A stretch of 64,000 nucleotides of DNA, from positions 1,771 to 65,770 of the forward strand of contig JAIPKD010000004.1 of NCBI GenBank assembly GCA_021733835.1, in the 5' to 3' direction. The DNA comes from Verrucomicrobiota bacterium. GTDB taxonomy: Bacteria > Verrucomicrobiota > Verrucomicrobiia > Limisphaerales > JAIPKD01. The position numbers and the translations under genes were made by a program. This document shows, in pieces, positions 37,760 through 47,616 of this stretch. Below the pieces are notes generated by a model. That model searched no databases, was not told where the DNA came from, and saw only the letters and a list, made by a program, of their open reading frames with translations. How positions within the stretch are numbered: position 1 is the first letter of the stretch; each line of letters starts with the position of its first letter.

Positions 37760-39910
37760 TTATGTATTCGAATCGTGTCTTTGGAGGTATTTATTATCCC
37801 CGACTGCTTTAATCGCCCTTTCAATGTGGCGCGGTTCTATTTGCAGCCTTTTCGGACCTCTGTCTTTAATGTTCACGATCAATTCACGGATCGCGTCTAT
37901 TGCGGATTCGTTACAGACTGCATGTATTTCGGCGCCGGAAAAACCTTCGGTGCTTTCAGCCAGACTGAGGATATCCACATCTTCGCAAATGGGCTTTGGT
38001 TTCAGCCAAATCTCGAATATTCTCCTTCGACTTTCGATATCCGGCAAAGGAATCTCCAACACCATATCGAAACGCCCTGGTCGTAAAAGAGCTGTATCAA
38101 GCAAATCGGGACGGTTCGTAGCGCCGAGCACAAAAACTCCTTCCAACAACTCGATACCATCCAGCTCGGTCAAAAACTGACTGATGACACGTTCAATCAC
38201 CCTAGAGTCCGAACCGCCGCATCCACGACCGGGCACCAAGGCATCGATCTCATCAAAAAAAACAATACATGGAGCAGCCTGTTTGGCTTTTCTGAATAGA
38301 TCTCTGACCGCTTTTTCAGATTCGCCGACGTACTTGGATAGCAAAGACGGGCCTTTAACGGAGATAAAGTTCACTTCGGTTTTCTTAGCCAGCGCCTTCG
38401 CCAGCAGCGTTTTGCCACATCCGGGTGGACCCGACAGTAAAATACCTTTTGGTGGTGTTACGGCCGCTTCTTTAAAAAGTGCGGGGAATTCTATCGGCCA
38501 CTCGACACATTCCAAAAGCCGTTGTTTGATCTCACTCAGGCCACCCACCTGCGTCCAATCCACCTCCGGCACTTCAGTGAATACTTCACGAATGGCCGAG
38601 GGTTCGACTTCCCTTAACGCCTCAACAAAGTCGGCCATATGAACCCGTAGATGTGAAAGCGTTTCGTAAGGTATCTCTGCAAGTTCAAAATTGATATCCG
38701 TCATGATATGCCTCAGACAGATCATGGCGGCTTCTCTACATAATGCCTCAAGGTCCGCTCCGACGAATCCATGGGTTATGGATGCCACACGTTCAATGTC
38801 AACGTCATCATCGAGCGGCATGCCGCGTGTGTGTCTCACCAATATTTCTTTTCTGCTTTCCCTGTCGGGAATTGGAATGACAATTTCACGATCGAAACGC
38901 CCCGGTCGTCGAAGGGCCGGATCGATTGCATTGGGAATATTCGTCGCTGCAATTACAATCACCTGCTGGCGTTTGGCCAATCCGTCCATAAGCGCCAGCA
39001 GCTGGGCCACGACGCGTTTTTCCACATCACCTACTACCTTTTCGCGATGCGGAGCAATTGCATCGATTTCATCAATAAAAATAATACTGGGTGCCTTTTC
39101 GGCCGCCTTCTTGAAGAAACTTCGCAGGTGAGCCTCACTCTCGCCATAAAACTTGTGTATTACCTCGGGGCCGTTGATAGAGAAAAAAGTGGCCTCTGTC
39201 TCATGCGCTACGGCCCTGGCAAGCAACGTCTTACCACATCCGGGCGGCCCTATCATTAAAACGCCTTTTGGTGGGTCAATGCCCAAACGTTCGAAAACTC
39301 GCGGATAACAAAGCGGCAGTTCGATTATTTCACGAATCCTTAGAATCTCACGCCCCAACCCCCCGATATCCTCATAACAAACGGTTTGCTTGGTCTCCGC
39401 CTCACCTACCTTGCCTATGCGAAGTTTAGTGGTGGGATTAATTACCGCCGGACATTTATTACCGACCTCGACTACTTTAAAATCCGCCGAGCGGGTACCG
39501 AATAACGTCACGCGAACACGGTCTCCGACCATAACCGGTAATCCGTCCAATAGACCGCCGATATATTTTAAGTCTCGCTCAGAAGGACTGATAGTAATCG
39601 GGGAAAGCACTACCAGACTTGCGGGATTCGCTTCCGCCTTACGTACCTGAACATGCTGATCGAGTGCCGTACCGGCATTGTCCCGTGAGATTCCATCTAT
39701 TTGCAAACAAGACCGACCGCGCACCTCTTTATATGCCGGCATGGCCTTGCAGACGGTTTTCCTTTTGCCCAAGACCTCGATGATATCGCCTATATTCACG
39801 CCCAGGGCTTCTATATCGGAAGGGTCCAGTCGCGCAAACGCTCTTCCAACGTCCTTACCGAGGGCTTCGGAAACCTTGAGTTTGAGCACCTTTTCTTCCG
39901 TAGCGATCAT
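37760..39910 (-). CDS. CDC48/VAT-family AAA+ ATPase (GvpZ-like)
   Basis: CDC48 N-domain and two AAA modules (GPPGCGKT twice, RPGRFD twice). Confidence 0.92.
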
Positions 39911-39921
39911 TTCATCCGATG

Positions 39922-40449
39922 TTATTTACTCAACTTCACTTCCATAATCCCATTACGGCATGAATAAGTCATCTGATCCATTGAGAAACTTGCTGGAAGC
40001 AACACTTCTTTCCGATATTTCTTCTGACCTTTCGCCGCGGACAATGTCAAAATGTCGCCATGCAGTTTCAAATCAACATCTTGTTCACCTATCCCCGGCA
40101 TCTCGGCAACGACCAACACGTATTTACCTTCATCAAACACGTCAACCAAAGGTTCGGTTATTTCACTGACGACCGTTTCCCCGGTGTTTTCGTCTTCATG
40201 CACATTACCGAAAGGTTCTATATTGACATCTTGCTTTCCAAGGCCGGTTTTCACGCGAAAACCATACACACCTCGCACTTTACCTTGTGACCCTTGAAAT
40301 TCGCCGGTTTTTTTCAATTCCTCTCCTTTTTCTGCGAGATCTCCGAGCTTCTCGAGCAAATTACTCAGCCCGTCCAGAAATCCCTTGGCTCCGGAGGGTG
40401 TTTCTTTCCGGCTGTCTTTCTCTTTATTCTCTTCACTATCATCATTCAT
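39922..40449 (-). CDS. Hsp20-family protein (GvpH-like)
   Basis: GVYGFRVKTGLG, EPLVDVFDE, AEMPGI, NGIMEV. Confidence 0.85.
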   Translation of the reverse strand: MNDDSEENKEKDSRKETPSGAKGFLDGLSNLLEKLGDLAEKGEELKKTGEFQGSQGKVRGVYGFRVKTGLGKQDVNIEPFGNVHEDENTGETVVSEITEPLVDVFDEGKYVLVVAEMPGIGEQDVDLKLHGDILTLSAAKGQKKYRKEVLLPASFSMDQMTYSCRNGIMEVKLSK

Positions 40450-41884
40450 TTGTATTCCTCCCGTTTTTTATTTGCTCAATTGAAATTATGTATCTTTTGA
40501 CCTTTGAATGAACTGTTTTGTAATCGGTCTCCAATATCCTTGCTGCTTCAGCCATGTTCCCACGTGTTTTTTTTAATGCATGTACAAGAGCCTTCTTCTC
40601 AATCTGTTCAATCGCGCCCTTTTTTAACTCGCTAAGCGAGTTCTCTCCGATAACCCGAATTCCAAAACTCGCGTCCAATGTCTTTACAGGTTCGGATTCA
40701 CGTGAAATATCCAAGTCATTTTCTTCGATGACATTGTTATCACATCTTAAAACCGCTCGGCGTATAACATTACGTAATTCACGAATATTGCCCGGCCACT
40801 CATGTGACATTAAGATTTCCTGTGCCTTATCGGATATCCCCTTTATATCTTTATTTAGTTCAAATCTACATTGATCTGTAAACCTTTTTGCAAGGAACCT
40901 AATGTCCTCACGGCGTTGCCGCAAGGGGGGCACGTCTATCTCAAATTCGCTCAGCCGATAGTATAAATCGCGTCGAAATTCCCTGTTTCTTACCATTGCA
41001 GATAGACTGCGATTGGTGGCGACAATAATCCGAATATCCACACTTATCGGCTTGTTGCCTCCTACTCTGACAACAGTTTTTTCTTGAAGCGTTCGGAGGA
41101 GTTTAGGCTGCACCTCTGAAGGTAGATTCGATATCTCGTCAAGAAAAAGCGTTCCATCCGAGGCGGCCTCAAATTTACCGGGATGCCGAGAAGTAGCCCC
41201 CGTAAACGCGCCTTTCTCGTGACCGAACAATTCGCTTTCAAGGAGTGTCGGCGCAATTGATCCACAGTCTACCGGAATGAATAAACCATTCTTCCGCTGG
41301 CTCCTCTCATGAATCGCACGAGCCACAACTTCTTTACCCGTACCGGTCTCACCGCTAATGATGACTGTGTAATCCGTCGGCGCCACAAGTTCCACTTGTG
41401 AGGTAATCTCGCGCATCGTCAAGCTAATGCCCAGATGCTCCCATGGCTTACATTGGTCTTCTGCAGAATGATAAACATCATCACATTGCGGCTTTCCTTT
41501 CCGGACAGCCCTGTTTATCACATCTCGTAGTTTTTCGCTATCAAACGGCTTACATAAGAAGTCAAAAGCCCCTAGTTTCATCGATTCAACAGCCGTCTCA
41601 ATAGTCCCAAATCCGGAAATGACAATTACCGGTATATCGGAATCGATTTTTTTAACCTCCTTGAGAACTTCCATCCCCCCAATATCGGGCATTATCAAAT
41701 CGAGAAAAATGAAATCTATGGTTTCAGCGTCACGCAATGTCATCAAGGCCTGTTCTCCACTACAGGCCTCAATTGATGCCATTCCAACGTTTTCTACGAA
41801 AGCACATAGAGTCTTCCTTACGCTATCATCATCGTCCACGATCAGCACTCGGGCGGGAGACATACTGTCAGCGGTTGAACGCAT
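40442..41884 (-). CDS. sigma54-dependent response regulator (NtrC family, GvrA-like)
   Basis: REC domain, GETGTGKE, FGHEKGAFTGA, WPGNIREL, Fis-type HTH. Confidence 0.93.
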   Translation of the reverse strand: MRSTADSMSPARVLIVDDDDSVRKTLCAFVENVGMASIEACSGEQALMTLRDAETIDFIFLDLIMPDIGGMEVLKEVKKIDSDIPVIVISGFGTIETAVESMKLGAFDFLCKPFDSEKLRDVINRAVRKGKPQCDDVYHSAEDQCKPWEHLGISLTMREITSQVELVAPTDYTVIISGETGTGKEVVARAIHERSQRKNGLFIPVDCGSIAPTLLESELFGHEKGAFTGATSRHPGKFEAASDGTLFLDEISNLPSEVQPKLLRTLQEKTVVRVGGNKPISVDIRIIVATNRSLSAMVRNREFRRDLYYRLSEFEIDVPPLRQRREDIRFLAKRFTDQCRFELNKDIKGISDKAQEILMSHEWPGNIRELRNVIRRAVLRCDNNVIEENDLDISRESEPVKTLDASFGIRVIGENSLSELKKGAIEQIEKKALVHALKKTRGNMAEAARILETDYKTVHSKVKRYIISIEQIKNGRNTNE

Positions 41885-42106
41885 AACCAACAATCATCGT
41901 CATAACTTATAGCCTTATAATTTGAAGTAAATGGTACATAAGGGCAAGAATACGCCTTCTTTTCACATTACCCGTTCAATAATATTTAATCTATCGGAGA
42001 ATCGATCCGAAGTCAAATGAATAGATGCAACGAAGCTGCATTGTATTGATAGGGAACAGTAATCTTAACGTTGATTGACAAATTATCCTCGCCGCCCCAC
42101 TTAACA

Positions 42107-43390: not shown

Positions 43391-44695
43391 CTATAATTCT
43401 TTTAGTTTTTCGCCAAGTTCTTCGACGGAAAATCCCTCTGCTATAACCTCGTGTTCGGGATCGGTGAGAATAAGCCAAGGCAAGGATTGAATACCCATCT
43501 CGAATTTCATGTCCTCGGCATCTTCATCCATCACCCCACACGGATAATGAATTTGGTTATCATCAAGCCAATTCTTCAATTGTTCTTTATCAACCGGTGA
43601 GGTATTCAGAAGAACGACGATGACGTCGTGTTCGTTTAATACGTCCGCGTTGGCGGCAAGTTGTTTGACAAAATGCCTGCTGGAGCGTTGATTCATATCC
43701 CACGCGAAGACCAGGATCGAACCGGCGTCGGCGGGCATGGTAATATCACACGTCGTCAAATCCGGTAATGTCTTTCCGACCAGTGACGACGGTGTCTTGG
43801 GGACGAACTGCGGAGTAGCACCCCCCTCGGTGAGAATCAATTTTATGTTTTTTGCGCCGCCTTGGGTTCGAACGTTCCCGAACAAATACTCGCCGTCCTT
43901 GTGAATACTCCCGTTTATCGATATTTCGCCGGCACAGACGCCGTCGAATTCAAAATACCCGTCCTTATCCGCATTCATACGCAAATGGGGCTGTCCCTGC
44001 CCATAAACGCTCAATCGAACATCGGCAATACCGTTTCCATTTATGTCTATGACCTGCCCGGACACTTTTCGATCGGCTTTCTTCAAAACAATATTCTCTA
44101 CCTCGACCGAAGACCCGGTGGAATCGGACCACACATCCTGTCTACCTGAACCGTACCCTTCGACTTTGGAAATATTGACCGAGTACCTCCAGTCCGGGAA
44201 CAATGCGTCGAATTGGTATTCGCCCTTATCATTGGTCGTAGTTTCTCTGCCGAATGAAACACCATAATTCGAACCCCAAAATTGAAGAACTACTCGTGCA
44301 TCGACAATCGGCTCGCCATTTTCGTTAACCACTTTTCCCTCTATCCCGGCGCCTTTGACGAGGTTAATCGTTACTTCCCTCGTGTCTTCATTGATCTGCG
44401 TCACTCCAGCCAATTTATTTTCCAGGTGTGTGGCGATGACATAAAATTCACCTTGCGCCCACGATGCCCGCGTCGGATCCCATAACACTTTAAACCGTCC
44501 GTCTTCATCCGATACTATACCATCTCCCTGCATTCCCCCAGTATTGGGAATCATTCGAATATTCACGCCTTCGGCCGGTTCGCCGTCGGGACCGATCACA
44601 GTCCCTGTAAGCTCCCGCTTCCCGGTATCTTGTGCGAAGACCAGACCCGACAAAAGCATGCATACACCGAACACTCCAATCCATCTTCTGCGCAT
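43391..44695 (-). CDS. secreted carboxypeptidase-regulatory-like repeat protein with C-terminal thioredoxin-like domain
   Basis: Signal peptide; three G.V..G.P/GI beta-sandwich repeats; VGKTLPDL...WDMNQRSSR...SLPWLILTD. Confidence 0.75.
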   Translation of the reverse strand: MRRRWIGVFGVCMLLSGLVFAQDTGKRELTGTVIGPDGEPAEGVNIRMIPNTGGMQGDGIVSDEDGRFKVLWDPTRASWAQGEFYVIATHLENKLAGVTQINEDTREVTINLVKGAGIEGKVVNENGEPIVDARVVLQFWGSNYGVSFGRETTTNDKGEYQFDALFPDWRYSVNISKVEGYGSGRQDVWSDSTGSSVEVENIVLKKADRKVSGQVIDINGNGIADVRLSVYGQGQPHLRMNADKDGYFEFDGVCAGEISINGSIHKDGEYLFGNVRTQGGAKNIKLILTEGGATPQFVPKTPSSLVGKTLPDLTTCDITMPADAGSILVFAWDMNQRSSRHFVKQLAANADVLNEHDVIVVLLNTSPVDKEQLKNWLDDNQIHYPCGVMDEDAEDMKFEMGIQSLPWLILTDPEHEVIAEGFSVEELGEKLKEL

Positions 44696-44730: not shown

Positions 44731-47616
44731 CTATTTCCGTTTCCCGAGGGTCAGAACAGCGAGTAGTCCAAAGATTATCAAAATAATTGCCCCAACGGCG
44801 ATCAGGTTATTGTCATTACCCTCGTCCGCCGTTTCCTCGCGCTCGGCCTCTGTGGCGACTTCCTGCATCGACTGCCCCTCCTCGACTATATCGGCATCGA
44901 CGAGCCGGGGTACGGCGGGCGCGCTTAAGTCTATCTCACCGTCTCGGGCGATCTTTTCGATTTGCGAGGAATTCAACACCGAATCGAACACGCGCACCTC
45001 ATCGATCAGTCCGTTGAAAAACCGGTTGGTAAAACCGGTATCGGCGCCGATCCAGAGAGCGCCATCGAATTCCTCGGGCGGATGAATTGTATTATTCGCG
45101 GCCGACTTCAACACATCGCCGTCATACAAATACAACGTCCCTTTCTTCGGCTGAACGGTTAACGCGACAAACACCCAGCGCTCCCGCGGCACCATCAGAC
45201 CGGGGTTCCAGGAATACGTTTGTACCATATCATTCCAGTGATACCGCAGATTGTCGCCCTCTAAATTGATACCGGCGACCGTTTGATCCGTGCGGCAGAA
45301 GACGATACCACAAGTCCGCGCATCTTGTTGCTGTATGCCCTCCTGTTGCCGGGCATTTATCCATGCGCAAATAGTGAGAGTATCCGTGTTCAAGCCCAAG
45401 GCCGGGGTTTCGATATAGTCATCCTCGCCATCGAGTTGAACCGCTTGACCGATACGTCCCGCCTGCCACGACGGCGCGCCTTGAACCGCACCGTCGAATT
45501 CCCCCTGCTCATCTACAGGCGTTCCGTCCAGCTTCCAGTGCGCAATCTGTTGTCTTCGGACTCTTAACGACCATACGGCGCCTTGCTCGATGGATTCGTC
45601 CTCGGATATCTCGTCAATACGCCAGACATATTCTTTACCGGGCGCTAGGCCGGCCGTTGTTATCCGGGGCTTGCCTTTGACGCGGCCCAGTAGCTTCAGG
45701 GCATCCTCGTCCTCGCCGATATAGACGTCATGCGCAACCGCGCCACTACCGGCGGTCCACATCAGAGTTATATTATCCGAGTATGAAATCTGCGAATCAT
45801 CGGCGGGAACGGGATTACAAGCGGCCGCACCGAGCGGTTCATGGAGGCTTACCTCGCTTAGTCCCAGTTGCGCCGTATCGGCATTGAAGGCCGTCATATT
45901 CTCGAACCGTATCTTCTCGGCCGACACAGGATCGAACGTAACAATCGTCGGCGTATCATAATCGTCAGTGCCTTCGGCCTCTTCCAAGGTCGCGTCTTTT
46001 ACAATCGTTCTCCACCCGTCATTTGCATTCCATACGGAAACATCCATCTTCCGGACGCCTAAGTCCGTATAACCGGGTTTATTAAAATTCCACACCGCGA
46101 TTGAGCCGAGCGTCTGAGCGCCGTCTTCCAGGGCAATGACGATGTCGCCGCCGGCCTTGCCTGTTTCACAAAGCCACATCCCTGATGCGTCCGTGCTGTG
46201 TTCCAGAAGTCTATCCGCATCGTTATCACTCAGACCACTGCCATCCATCAGCGCTTTGAAAGGCGATGTATCATCCACCTGCACAGGGACGGCCTGCCCG
46301 AGTGCGGGCATGGGACGGTCTTCGGGCTTCAGTGTGAAGTTGAGTTCGCGGACATCAAACGGAACGTCGAGCACGACACTTGCGTAAAACGGACGTTCAA
46401 CATCAGAAGGCTCTCGCCACGAGAGCGAACAGGTGCCGCCTCACCCATACTCCAATGAAAAATTGCGGTCGTACTCGCCTGACTTATTCCAGATACGCAC
46501 CCCCGGCGCTTCAGGTCTTACACCCGCTTTCCTCAGGGAGATGCTCTCGCCGGACTTACCGTAAAGGTTCTGATTAAAGTAAAATGTATTGCCGCTCGTA
46601 TTCCTTGCCGTCAGTTGCGAGAAAAACGGCTCGCCGACATCGACATTTACAGGCGCATTCTCGGCGACCGTGAACCCGCTGTTCGGCGGAAAACTAGTTC
46701 CGCGAAGCGTCCACGGCACTCCCAGCTCATCCTCGCGCGTTATTTCCCATGAACGAATGCGGTAATACCCTTCCGGCAGACTTACCTCGCCGCCATCGAC
46801 AGCATGTTCGAACATACCGTTCGTGCCTGCGGCCGAAAAGGATGTGATCGTATCCGGCATGGTAACGACGCCATACGCCGTATCCGGTGCGGGTTGAAGC
46901 TCTAAAAAGGCGCCGTCCTCGGCTACCTTGAGACGATAAAGTGAGCGAGCGATCTCGATATAGTTTCCGACCCAATTGGTACGCTTCCCACCTCCACTGC
47001 CGAGTATAATACGGTCACAATCGAAATTCTCCGGTTTATCATTAAACGCGCCGTTACAATTGTAGTCCAACAACATGCAGCGTTCCGTTTTTCCCCCGAT
47101 ATCAATGTTCCCTTGATACCAACATCCGGCGGAAGAATAAACATATGGAGTCTGTCTGTTATAGCAGTAATACCGGAGGTTCAGGTGGTAGGTAATCGTT
47201 CCGTCATCACCCTCGAAATAGACGGGAACGGCGCCGAACTCGACGTTGTATTGCGACGTTCGACGGCCCTTGATCTTCTGCTCGTCATCGAGCTGTCCGT
47301 CACCGTCGGTATCGATATACAGGATATCGTTCGAGCTGTATATGCTCGTTTTGTCAAACACCATCCATCGGAATCCGGCGGGGTCCATTGCCGTCGTCCA
47401 CTTGAAGAATTGTGGGGCGTCCGAAGACAATTCAGGCAATTTCATATCGGCCGGCGCTTCCGTTTCCATTTCCATTTGGAGCACCTGGTAGCTGCCGCCC
47501 ACGACTTCGCGCGCATGCTCGGAGGTATGATAATTGAGCCACTGGGCATCCGCCCAAAGAATCGGGTACGCCGATAAAAACGCTGCCGCACATAGCCATG
47601 AACCGATTGTTTTCAT
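44731..47616 (-). CDS. candidate exported selenoprotein (UGA read-through joins the 391-aa and 547-aa ORFs; contains a LamG domain and C-terminal TM anchor)
   Basis: Both ORFs are in one frame with only the TGA at 46441-46443 between them; 22 sense codons GGTCSLSWREPSDVERPFYASV bridge them; hairpin downstream of the TGA. Confidence 0.7.
46410..46426 (-). promoter_or_regulatory. putative bacterial SECIS hairpin
   Basis: GCTCTCG-TGG-CGAGAGC, a perfect 7-bp stem starting 14 nt after the in-frame UGA. Confidence 0.65.

Follow-up and report, generated by a model that had tools for sequence, protein, structure and literature searches.

A predicted exported protein with an in-frame UGA codon: a probable selenoprotein gene from a Verrucomicrobiota bacterium and the apparently uncatalogued family around it

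This report deals with a gene on the minus strand of a 64,000-nucleotide (nt) stretch of DNA (hereafter, the window) on contig JAIPKD010000004.1 of a Verrucomicrobiota bacterium (GCA_021733835.1). Two open reading frames (ORFs), 46441..47616 (391 amino acids (aa), ATG start) and 44731..46374 (547 aa, GTG start), lie there in the same frame with the TGA at 46441-46443 as the sole interruption, and gene callers split the locus into two proteins, P0155 (391 aa) and P0002 (547 aa). Translation through the TGA yields 961 aa with selenocysteine (Sec, U) at residue 392 (...NFSLEYG-U392-GGTCSLSWREPSDVERPF...). The first-pass annotation, made from the letters alone, had described two ORFs in one frame parted only by TGA and a read-through product of 961 aa, both of which are borne out by the sequence and its translation. 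Very probably, 44731-47616 is a single gene and encodes a genuine selenoprotein, with the following layout:

44731..47616, minus strand: complete predicted selenoprotein gene, 961 aa (start codon ATG, 47616-47614; UGA for Sec, codon 392; true stop TAG, 44733-44731)
47545..47616, minus strand: putative signal peptide, residues ~1-24 (MKTIGSWLCAAAFLSAYPILWADA), a hydrophobic leader recognized by eye; in the structure model a low-confidence helix (predicted local distance difference test, pLDDT, 66-68)
46636..47544, minus strand: N-terminal all-beta region, residues ~25-327 (pLDDT mostly >92 in the AlphaFold2 (AF2) model; conserved alignment columns)
46306..46635, minus strand: Sec module, residues ~328-437, a predicted immunoglobulin (Ig)/Fn3-like beta-sandwich (AF2 model and fold search)
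46441..46443, minus strand: UGA decoded as selenocysteine (U392), within EYG-U-GGTC-SL-SWR-E-P (conservation in homologues)
46410..46426, minus strand: hairpin of the selenocysteine insertion sequence (SECIS) type, 7-bp stem GCUCUCG/CGAGAGC, loop UGG (sequence and covariation)
44959..45432, minus strand: Laminin_G_3 (LamG/concanavalin-like) domain, residues 729-886 (Pfam PF13385, E 2.4e-22; 80.2 bits, cut-off 27.6)
44743..44805, minus strand: putative membrane anchor, a hydrophobic stretch (residues ~938-958) followed by KRK, recognized by eye

The Pfam scan of the 961-aa protein returned Laminin_G_3 only, and the NCBIfam scan nothing relevant. The Laminin_G_3 match, which is above the gathering score, concerns the C-terminal tail alone and leaves the Sec module outside. 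The N-terminal all-beta region (residues ~25-327) gave no Pfam or NCBIfam match; within it, YIDTDGDGQLDDE and LLDYNCNGAFNDK form two loops similar to D-x-[DN]-x-[DN]-G-x-x-[DN]-D, which we take to resemble calcium-binding loops. Of the domains proposed initially, LamG is confirmed by the Pfam score and the beta-sandwich is supported by the AF2 model, and the signal peptide and the transmembrane (TM) anchor are readings by eye; together, the sequence features suggest an exported, membrane-anchored ("surface-anchored") protein.

The evidence for decoding of the TGA comes, first of all, from its conservation. A paralogue in the same genome (C48:42638-44656, minus strand; 672 aa) has its own leader, the TGA in the context ...GRFEYG-TGA-GGTCTYSWRVP... 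and a polytopic membrane domain at the end. When the first 459 residues (U written as C) were used to search 401 same-order genomes with stops counted, 66 rows in 37 genomes were returned; 60 of these rows contain exactly one TGA, and the remaining six match within query residues 9-326 only, short of residue 392. In all 29 copies from 21 loci (L030-L050), the TGA lies inside the motif [EQA][YF]G-U-GG-x-C-x-x-SWR-[EV]-P. A DNA pattern permitting TGA, TGT or TGC at the Sec codon, applied to one genome for each of 185,579 species, gave at least 135 matches in at least 119 stretches. Among the matches listed, 124 belong to the family, and each of these has TGA (124/124); the other 11, six of them with TGC, arose by chance in unrelated genomes rich in GC, where they lie in short open frames. 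A profile of the 105-residue module (A3) found 22 rows in 14 of 401 genomes of the phylum, all 22 with one TGA. Over 153 distinct copies, G at positions +1 and +2 from the Sec and C at +4 are invariant, G at -1 is present in 150, and the 22 codons between the TGA and the downstream GTG represent the most conserved part of the protein. Homology had been expected across the junction; it is present on both sides, with TGA in every homologue that reaches the column in these searches.

At the protein level, a HMMER scan of 1.84 billion representatives revealed 852 relatives at E ≤1e-3, and 143 of the 150 best-listed ones end at or before query residue 391, i.e., public gene callers cut the family at the TGA. 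Other searches contributed less: the whole-protein query over the 40 nearest relatives gave LamG-region matches and the own paralogue only, so that the N-terminal query was needed, and the word-indexed protein searches, which are little informative, returned the two fragments of the window itself and unrelated LamG or MBG proteins only.

The second line of evidence is the hairpin downstream of the TGA (GCTCTCG at 46426-46420, TGG at 46419-46417, CGAGAGC at 46416-46410). Its onset is 14 nt and its loop onset 21 nt past the TGA, and the second loop base is G; the first-pass annotation had given the sequence, the position and the loop G correctly. The bacterial SECIS (bSECIS) model, as described in the available text of a 2026 review (PMC13188914), has a loop of 3-9 nt, an upper stem of 4-16 bp, a UGA-loop spacing of 16-37 nt, G in one of the first two loop positions and a minimum free energy (MFE) no higher than -7.5 kcal/mol. 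The hairpin of the window agrees with this model (7 bp, 3-nt loop, spacing of 21 nt, G at the second loop position and one more G after it), and the 50 nt after the UGA fold at an MFE of -14.2 kcal/mol, which passes the -7.5 limit, with the hairpin included in the MFE structure. The own genome has 1384 open frames of 150 codons or more that end in TGA; a perfect hairpin with a stem of 7 bp or longer and bSECIS geometry follows 11 of them (0.8%), the gene of the window and its paralogue being two of the 11. Hence, a single-sequence hairpin is only moderately beyond chance, and its significance comes from the comparative data. The other nine frames are situated on contigs C6, C12 (reverse-complement position 65206), C33, C39, C46, C70, C93, C108 and C111; most of their hairpins are probably terminators or due to chance. 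An Rfam search of 46300-46520 found nothing relevant.

In the paralogue, the hairpin reads GTACTCG-TGG-CGAGTAC: two base pairs are changed on both sides relative to the window, and the pairing is kept. Covariation was followed in 148 distinct 69-nt windows (alignment A1, no gaps; the stem is formed by columns 27-33 with 37-43), in which the UGA-loop spacing is invariant. Pairing reaches 94.5% of the stem cells, as against 86.2% after shuffling and 20-57% with the partner displaced. Pair 28-42 is UA in 68 sequences, CG in 59 and UG in 21, with none unpaired; pair 29-41 is AU in 101, UA in 39, GU in 4, GC in 2, UG in 1 and unpaired in 1. Column 27 is G in 147 of the 148, even though it falls on the third base of the codon for a residue that varies (S, R, G, A, T, Q; rarely K, E, L, V). 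The compensatory changes anticipated from the sequence alone were found, e.g., in the L and E codons, where they keep the stem. RNAalifold independently gives the same stem, with a consensus of 6 bp and a 5-nt loop R-UGG-C; the closing G-C pair of the window is shared by 93 of the 148 sequences.

The third line concerns the Sec machinery. The assembly (2.84 Mb in 114 contigs, 91.9% complete, every contig at least 5.5 kb; the window is on contig C12) carries selD (377 bits), selB (333 bits) and tRNA-Sec (anticodon tca; aragorn) on contig C11. The window itself was noted from the start to be devoid of sel genes, and the best selD-like row on its contig scores 28.6 bits against a cut-off of 125. 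No Sec-type FdhA was found in the own genome. TGA serves here as an ordinary stop, ending 518 of the 1291 open frames of at least 300 codons, including the neighbouring FabF-like, RNase HII and sigma-54 activator genes, and a filter for other suppressor or unassigned tRNAs among the 39 tRNAs predicted by aragorn printed none besides tRNA-Sec. In the order sample, selB was found in 130 of the 401 genomes, namely in 27 of the 31 carriers of TGA rows vs 103 of the 370 others; the four selB-negative carriers are assemblies 57-83% complete. In the phylum sample, selB is present in 24 of the 401 genomes, in 13 of the 14 family carriers vs 11 of the 387 others, so about half of the selB-positive genomes (13/24) carry the family. 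The first-pass annotation had named homologue-bearing genomes devoid of Sec machinery as an argument against itself; the carriers are strongly enriched for selB. The linkage is physical as well: selA, selB or a selD-CMD fusion lies within ~12 kb of the family gene in 6 of 18 regions, and selB is less than 200 nt away from it in G774:C9 and G662:C99.

Several peculiarities of the sel genes may be mentioned here. SelD of this genome (C11:7916-9508, which is L188:2917-4509) has a C-terminal AhpD/CMD-like fusion and a Cys-rich N-terminal extension; the selD-CMD fusion also occurs in sel clusters of relatives (L051:14146-15846). In relatives, selA directly adjoins selB; on the corresponding side of selB here, there is an ORF for a 646-aa xylose-isomerase-like TIM-barrel protein (C11:19919-21859). 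Next to selB, at C11:14564-17449 (minus strand), a 961-aa exported protein with multiple CarboxypepD_reg repeats and He_PIG is encoded. Its CarboxypepD_reg likeness to the conserved neighbour of the family gene (see below) looks as if an ancestral cluster of sel and selenoprotein genes had been scattered in this genome.

The AF2 model built on a 150-sequence alignment is all-beta (pLDDT 92.6, predicted template modelling score 0.87). In this model, U392 occupies a turn between strands 383-387 and 396-401, four more strands follow the UGA, and strands from either side of it build one sandwich. Since these four strands of the last domain lie beyond the UGA, a product stopping there would hold an incomplete domain. 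The model and the alignment together place Sec at the tip of a beta-hairpin turn (Y-G-U-G-G-T-C), with an invariant Cys four residues on. In the wide VIA-align search, the best row for the model of the form found in the window (A) had Z 8.1 and a root-mean-square deviation of 2.8 over 94 aligned residues, and every row fell on model residues 328-439. The model of the paralogue-like form (B; module and tail) comprises the sandwich and 7-8 helices (pLDDT 91.3), and its best row (Z 9.4) fell on the Ig-like module. For both models, the VIA-align rows were limited to generic Fn3, MG and Ig folds with no specific relative among them; neither model had a PDB match at E ≤1e-3 in Foldseek, and a profile search of PDB sequences was empty (best E 0.68). 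For the membrane part of the B form, no specific fold match was found in Foldseek or VIA-align. The alignment of this domain from 36 forms shows no conserved pair of membrane cysteines; its single mostly conserved Cys belongs to a C-R-x-R-Y-R-P loop. The fold lists scarcely probed the N-terminal beta region or the TM domain of the B form, and the status of a new fold is not claimed.

A number of observations weigh against the selenoprotein reading. Seven of the 150 best-listed HMMER relatives run past the site; the five of them aligned by eye show G, L, R, R and G at the Sec column, and four of these five are also without the Cys. In one such relative, P0046, the Sec column has G and the Cys column L; the module is fused there to a preceding long membrane region that includes an HExxH-type motif and may correspond to a BlaR1/M56 signal-transducer domain. 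No homologue with Cys in place of Sec was found among the listed DNA-pattern matches from the 185,579 species or with the profile in the 401 genomes of the phylum, so the alternative Cys that the first-pass annotation expected at this column did not turn up; the word-indexed protein database gave no Cys form either, which is weak evidence. Unlike selB, selD and tRNA-Sec, selA was not detected in the 91.9%-complete assembly (PF03841, TIGR00474, tblastn with SelA of a relative); as the assembly has no contig below 5.5 kb, the gene could sit on a short missing contig. Taken by itself, the short hairpin is no stabler than shuffles (mean -14.0 kcal/mol, z -0.07; 84 of 200 fold at least as well). 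In 55 of the 148 aligned sequences, the closing position is A.C and the loop AUGGC has G at positions 3-4, so the strict loop-G criterion is missed. The covariation is partly confounded by relatedness within subfamilies and by possible amino-acid coupling (L/E, Y/V, H/V), and the pattern by which loci L069-L187 were retrieved fixed columns 31, 32, 34-38, 40, 43 and 44. As for the function proposed below, it is read from the motif and the predicted fold only.

With these points in mind, other explanations of the locus can be compared. If the TGA were a true stop, there would be two genes, or else a nonsense mutation or a sequencing error, with the 547-aa ORF translated separately or not at all; the split made by gene callers (391 + 547 aa), the GTG start 22 codons past the TGA and the failure to find selA all fit such a situation. 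It is already contradicted by comparative sequence data, as the TGA stands at the same motif column in all 124 listed pattern matches, in 60 of the 66 order rows and in all 22 phylum rows, and the 22 codons up to the GTG are the best conserved part of the protein. Moreover, the Ig-like domain would, according to the model, need strands from either side of the TGA, and many relatives have ~40 codons past it, too few for a separate gene. A sequencing error is also at odds with a contig of run X1 that spans 46250-46650 with zero differences, X1 possibly being the source of this DNA and, in that case, not independent. A true stop is, therefore, extremely improbable.

Another possibility is that Trp, Cys or Gly, for example, is inserted at the UGA instead of Sec, whether through near-cognate decoding, a suppressor or a reassigned code, and that the hairpin stimulates read-through in general. 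The missing selA would be consistent with this, as would the lack of Cys homologues indicating a need for a chalcogen at the site and the G, R or L that non-Sec relatives hold there. Such decoding would leave the association of family carriage with selB in both samples, and the frequent adjacency of sel genes to family genes, without an explanation. TGA is an ordinary stop in this genome, which possesses tRNA-Sec and, in the filtered aragorn output, no other suppressor among its 39 tRNAs, and the hairpin geometry fits the bSECIS model as outlined in the review (PMC13188914). We regard non-Sec read-through as very unlikely. The UGA could also be mainly regulatory, i.e., a selenium-dependent switch with termination under selenium limitation and the full-length anchored LamG protein made only when Sec-tRNA is available. 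In bacteria, Sec insertion competes with release factor 2, and this competition, along with the great variety of the tails after Sec (~40 aa, a TM domain, or LamG and an anchor), speaks in favour of a switch. The stopped product would miss four strands of its last domain as modelled, and the invariant G-U-G-G-x-C context (C at +4 in 153/153) points to a chemical role of Sec. As the principal explanation, a switch has little probability too; it is compatible with Sec decoding rather than exclusive of it.

Overall, decoding of the UGA as Sec is well supported. When the ribosome reaches the UGA at codon 392, SelB with Sec-tRNA(Sec) would bind the 6-7-bp hairpin located 21 nt downstream inside the coding sequence, selenocysteine would be inserted, and translation would then continue; this mechanism is established for bacteria, and we infer it here. 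The motif, the fold and the location allow a tentative suggestion that the U-x3-C pair forms a redox or covalent-carrier centre outside the cytoplasm, which would be a selenylsulfide switch or else carry S/Se species and would work like other Ig-fold periplasmic thiol proteins. More speculative, and on balance rather doubtful, is a broader proposal: the G-U-G-G-x-C Ig-fold module would be an obligately selenium-dependent extracytoplasmic carrier or redox centre without a sulfur-only counterpart, and it would be chiefly this selenoprotein that maintains the Sec trait in Planctomycetota and Verrucomicrobiota. The module might then carry sulfur or selenium species on a swinging arm or relay electrons in connection with the membrane, and its near-invariant 35-nt UGA-SECIS cassette would have spread between phyla.

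Two Ig-fold systems offer themselves for comparison. In the Sox system, the periplasmic protein SoxY has an Ig-like sandwich fold and carries its substrate through a single chalcogen residue within a Gly-rich GGCGG motif at the C-terminus. The sandwich and the Gly-rich context are akin to those of G-U-G-G here; in contrast to SoxY, the motif is internal and followed by an invariant Cys. The likeness to SoxY is kept as an analogy of working principle: the B-form model yielded three weak Foldseek rows with SoxYZ chains (2oxh_A, E 1.6e-2; 2ox5_C, 2.0e-2; 2oxg_C, 2.2e-2) among generic Ig folds, and the PDB profile search was empty. The alpha domain of DsbD (nDsbD), which has an Ig fold, acts in the periplasm as a thiol-disulfide relay and is attached to a membrane domain. 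An Ig-like domain with a close putative redox pair on a polytopic membrane domain is likewise seen in the B-form paralogue, whereas nDsbD is absent from the top 50 fold rows and the membrane domain of the B form is without a conserved membrane Cys pair.

As to the known selenoproteins, 119 prokaryotic families or subfamilies are tabulated in Table 1 of the 2026 review, and none of those tabulated has U-G-G-x-C or this architecture (PMC13188914). NCBIfam release 20.0 scans of the 961-aa protein and of short A, B and C forms returned no selenoprotein family. The first-pass annotation could not name a known family; the Sec-bearing part indeed matches no Pfam or NCBIfam model and none of the tabulated families. 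The redox selenoproteins with UxxC or CxxU (Sec thioredoxin-like, DsbA-like and thiol:disulfide interchange proteins, as listed in PMC13188914) share with the present one the in-frame UGA with a coding stem-loop, the Sec near a Cys and genomes with selB, selD and tRNA-Sec, but they are thioredoxin-like, whereas here the fold is a predicted Ig/Fn3-like sandwich, the spacing is U-x3-C, and no Cys-form homologues were found. The "hypothetical protein DG" (motif GUxG, NF049953), described in the available text of PMC12013277 as a Desulfosediminicola protein with Cys homologues, was rejected as a member, since its model does not match and Cys homologues are reported for it. The TonB-dependent receptor with the FCYXU motif, the outer-membrane protein of the GSU2204/MtrB-PioB type and the multihaem cytochrome ExtKL, all catalogued in the same review (PMC13188914), are likewise exported or envelope-located, so Sec outside the cytoplasm has a precedent; their folds and motifs are unrelated, and their models (NF049945, NF041027, NF040886) have no match here. 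No description of a G-U-G-G-x-C family was found in the literature covered, which excluded subscription journals and supplements. According to the accessible part of PMC12013277, deep-Sep may miss families without Cys homologues, which would explain why a Sec-only family has been overlooked. The gene thus apparently represents the founding example of an uncatalogued, Sec-only, exported Ig-fold selenoprotein family.

So far, 108 of the 119 stretches listed are true family loci, all from metagenome-assembled genomes (MAGs). By hand tally of the taxon labels as recorded, Planctomycetota account for 82 loci (Sedimentisphaerales, other Phycisphaerae, Pirellulales, Planctomycetales and one Brocadiaceae), Verrucomicrobiota for 14 (one Kiritimatiellia among them), Hydrogenedentota and BRC1/Sumerlaeota for two each, Riflebacteria, Acidobacteriota, Zixibacteria and an Actinomycetes-labelled MAG for one each, and four are unlabelled. 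The architecture was assessed in 153 distinct copies, 145 of them with a complete 3' end. Short forms with 38-60 residues after Sec prevail (79 copies); 61-150 residues were found in 9, 151-340 in 49 (38 of them non-A forms, the 36 aligned ones carrying the TM domain), and more than 340 in 8, window-like forms included. Three kinds of tail are discernible, i.e., a short one of ~40 residues, a domain of ~280 residues with 7-8 TM helices (as in the paralogue), and beta domains with LamG and a TM anchor. The Sec module is thus shown to define a family of several subfamilies and tail types. In two Planctomycetota copies (L145:3473-4897, L156:940-2322), apparent leucine-rich repeats replace the N-terminal beta region and the Sec module is kept, so the module behaves like a portable unit. 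In L128:2714-5598, L153 and L155, two or three family genes stand in tandem on a single MAG contig, each with a UGA and a hairpin of its own.

The gene next to the selenoprotein gene in the window is the following:

43391..44695, minus strand: exported CarboxypepD_reg-repeat protein with a thioredoxin-like C-terminal domain lacking CxxC, 35 nt past the selenoprotein gene

Proteins with multiple CarboxypepD_reg repeats (neighbour cluster 1) follow the A-type gene in 11 of 20 regions, this one among them. Being without CxxC, the thioredoxin-like domain was dropped as a candidate redox partner; larger cluster-1 proteins of relatives showed no thioredoxin domain at E ≤1e-3. Genes for the A and B forms are neighbours in many relatives and reside on separate contigs in this genome. 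A Fer4_5 membrane protein of the NapH/MauN-like kind (56 bits, cut-off 213) is encoded beside the B form here and inside sel clusters elsewhere. Farther along the window, at 37760-39910 (minus strand), there is a Cdc48/p97-like double-AAA ATPase with CDC48_N, downstream of a sigma-54 response regulator (40442-41893).

The UGA-hairpin cassette has a distribution of its own. Both copies of this genome (46410-46443 in the window and the region of C48:43472) have TCG-TGG (closing G-C pair) and the GGTC motif, as in Planctomycetota copies; the same-order relatives (L032-L050) all have TCA-TGG, and all their A-type copies have V, L or I before the Cys, not T. The protein of the window is 38-42% identical to Planctomycetota A-types and 28-39% to most same-order ones (A2 alignment). 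Co-evolution with SelB or a transfer between phyla could account for the Planctomycetota-like cassette. Of 98 words of 31 letters sampled from 46000-47000 of the window, about 4 recur in many unrelated metagenomes and metatranscriptomes (runs X4-X20). The sequence shared by three RNA runs is the UGA-hairpin cassette, near-identical in nucleotides across organisms: metatranscriptome contigs from X17, X18 and X19 match 46408-46479 over 35-72 nt with 0-6 differing letters and are then unlike the window, so they belong to other family members. Cover outside 46404-46487 was zero in these three runs; presence in an RNA library is no proof of transcription, and the RNA evidence is weak.

The significance of these findings is associated with the way in which selenoproteins are discovered. 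The discovery pipelines lean on pairs of Sec and Cys homologues, so a family without Cys forms is invisible to them, and the public gene calls truncate this one at the UGA. Most characterized prokaryotic selenoproteins possess a thioredoxin-like fold, as stated in the available text of the review (PMC13188914). If confirmed, a widespread, exported family with a different fold would join the selenoprotein catalogue, and hundreds of split or truncated annotations would be corrected; the sharply defined motif with its SECIS is also searchable in metaproteomes. The family would, furthermore, explain the retention of the Sec machinery in many bacteria of the Planctomycetes-Verrucomicrobia-Chlamydiae (PVC) superphylum. 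It raises the question of which extracellular chemistry needs selenium so strictly that sulfur never substitutes for it; should the dependence on selenium prove obligate, this would be a new biochemical role of selenocysteine outside the cytoplasm.

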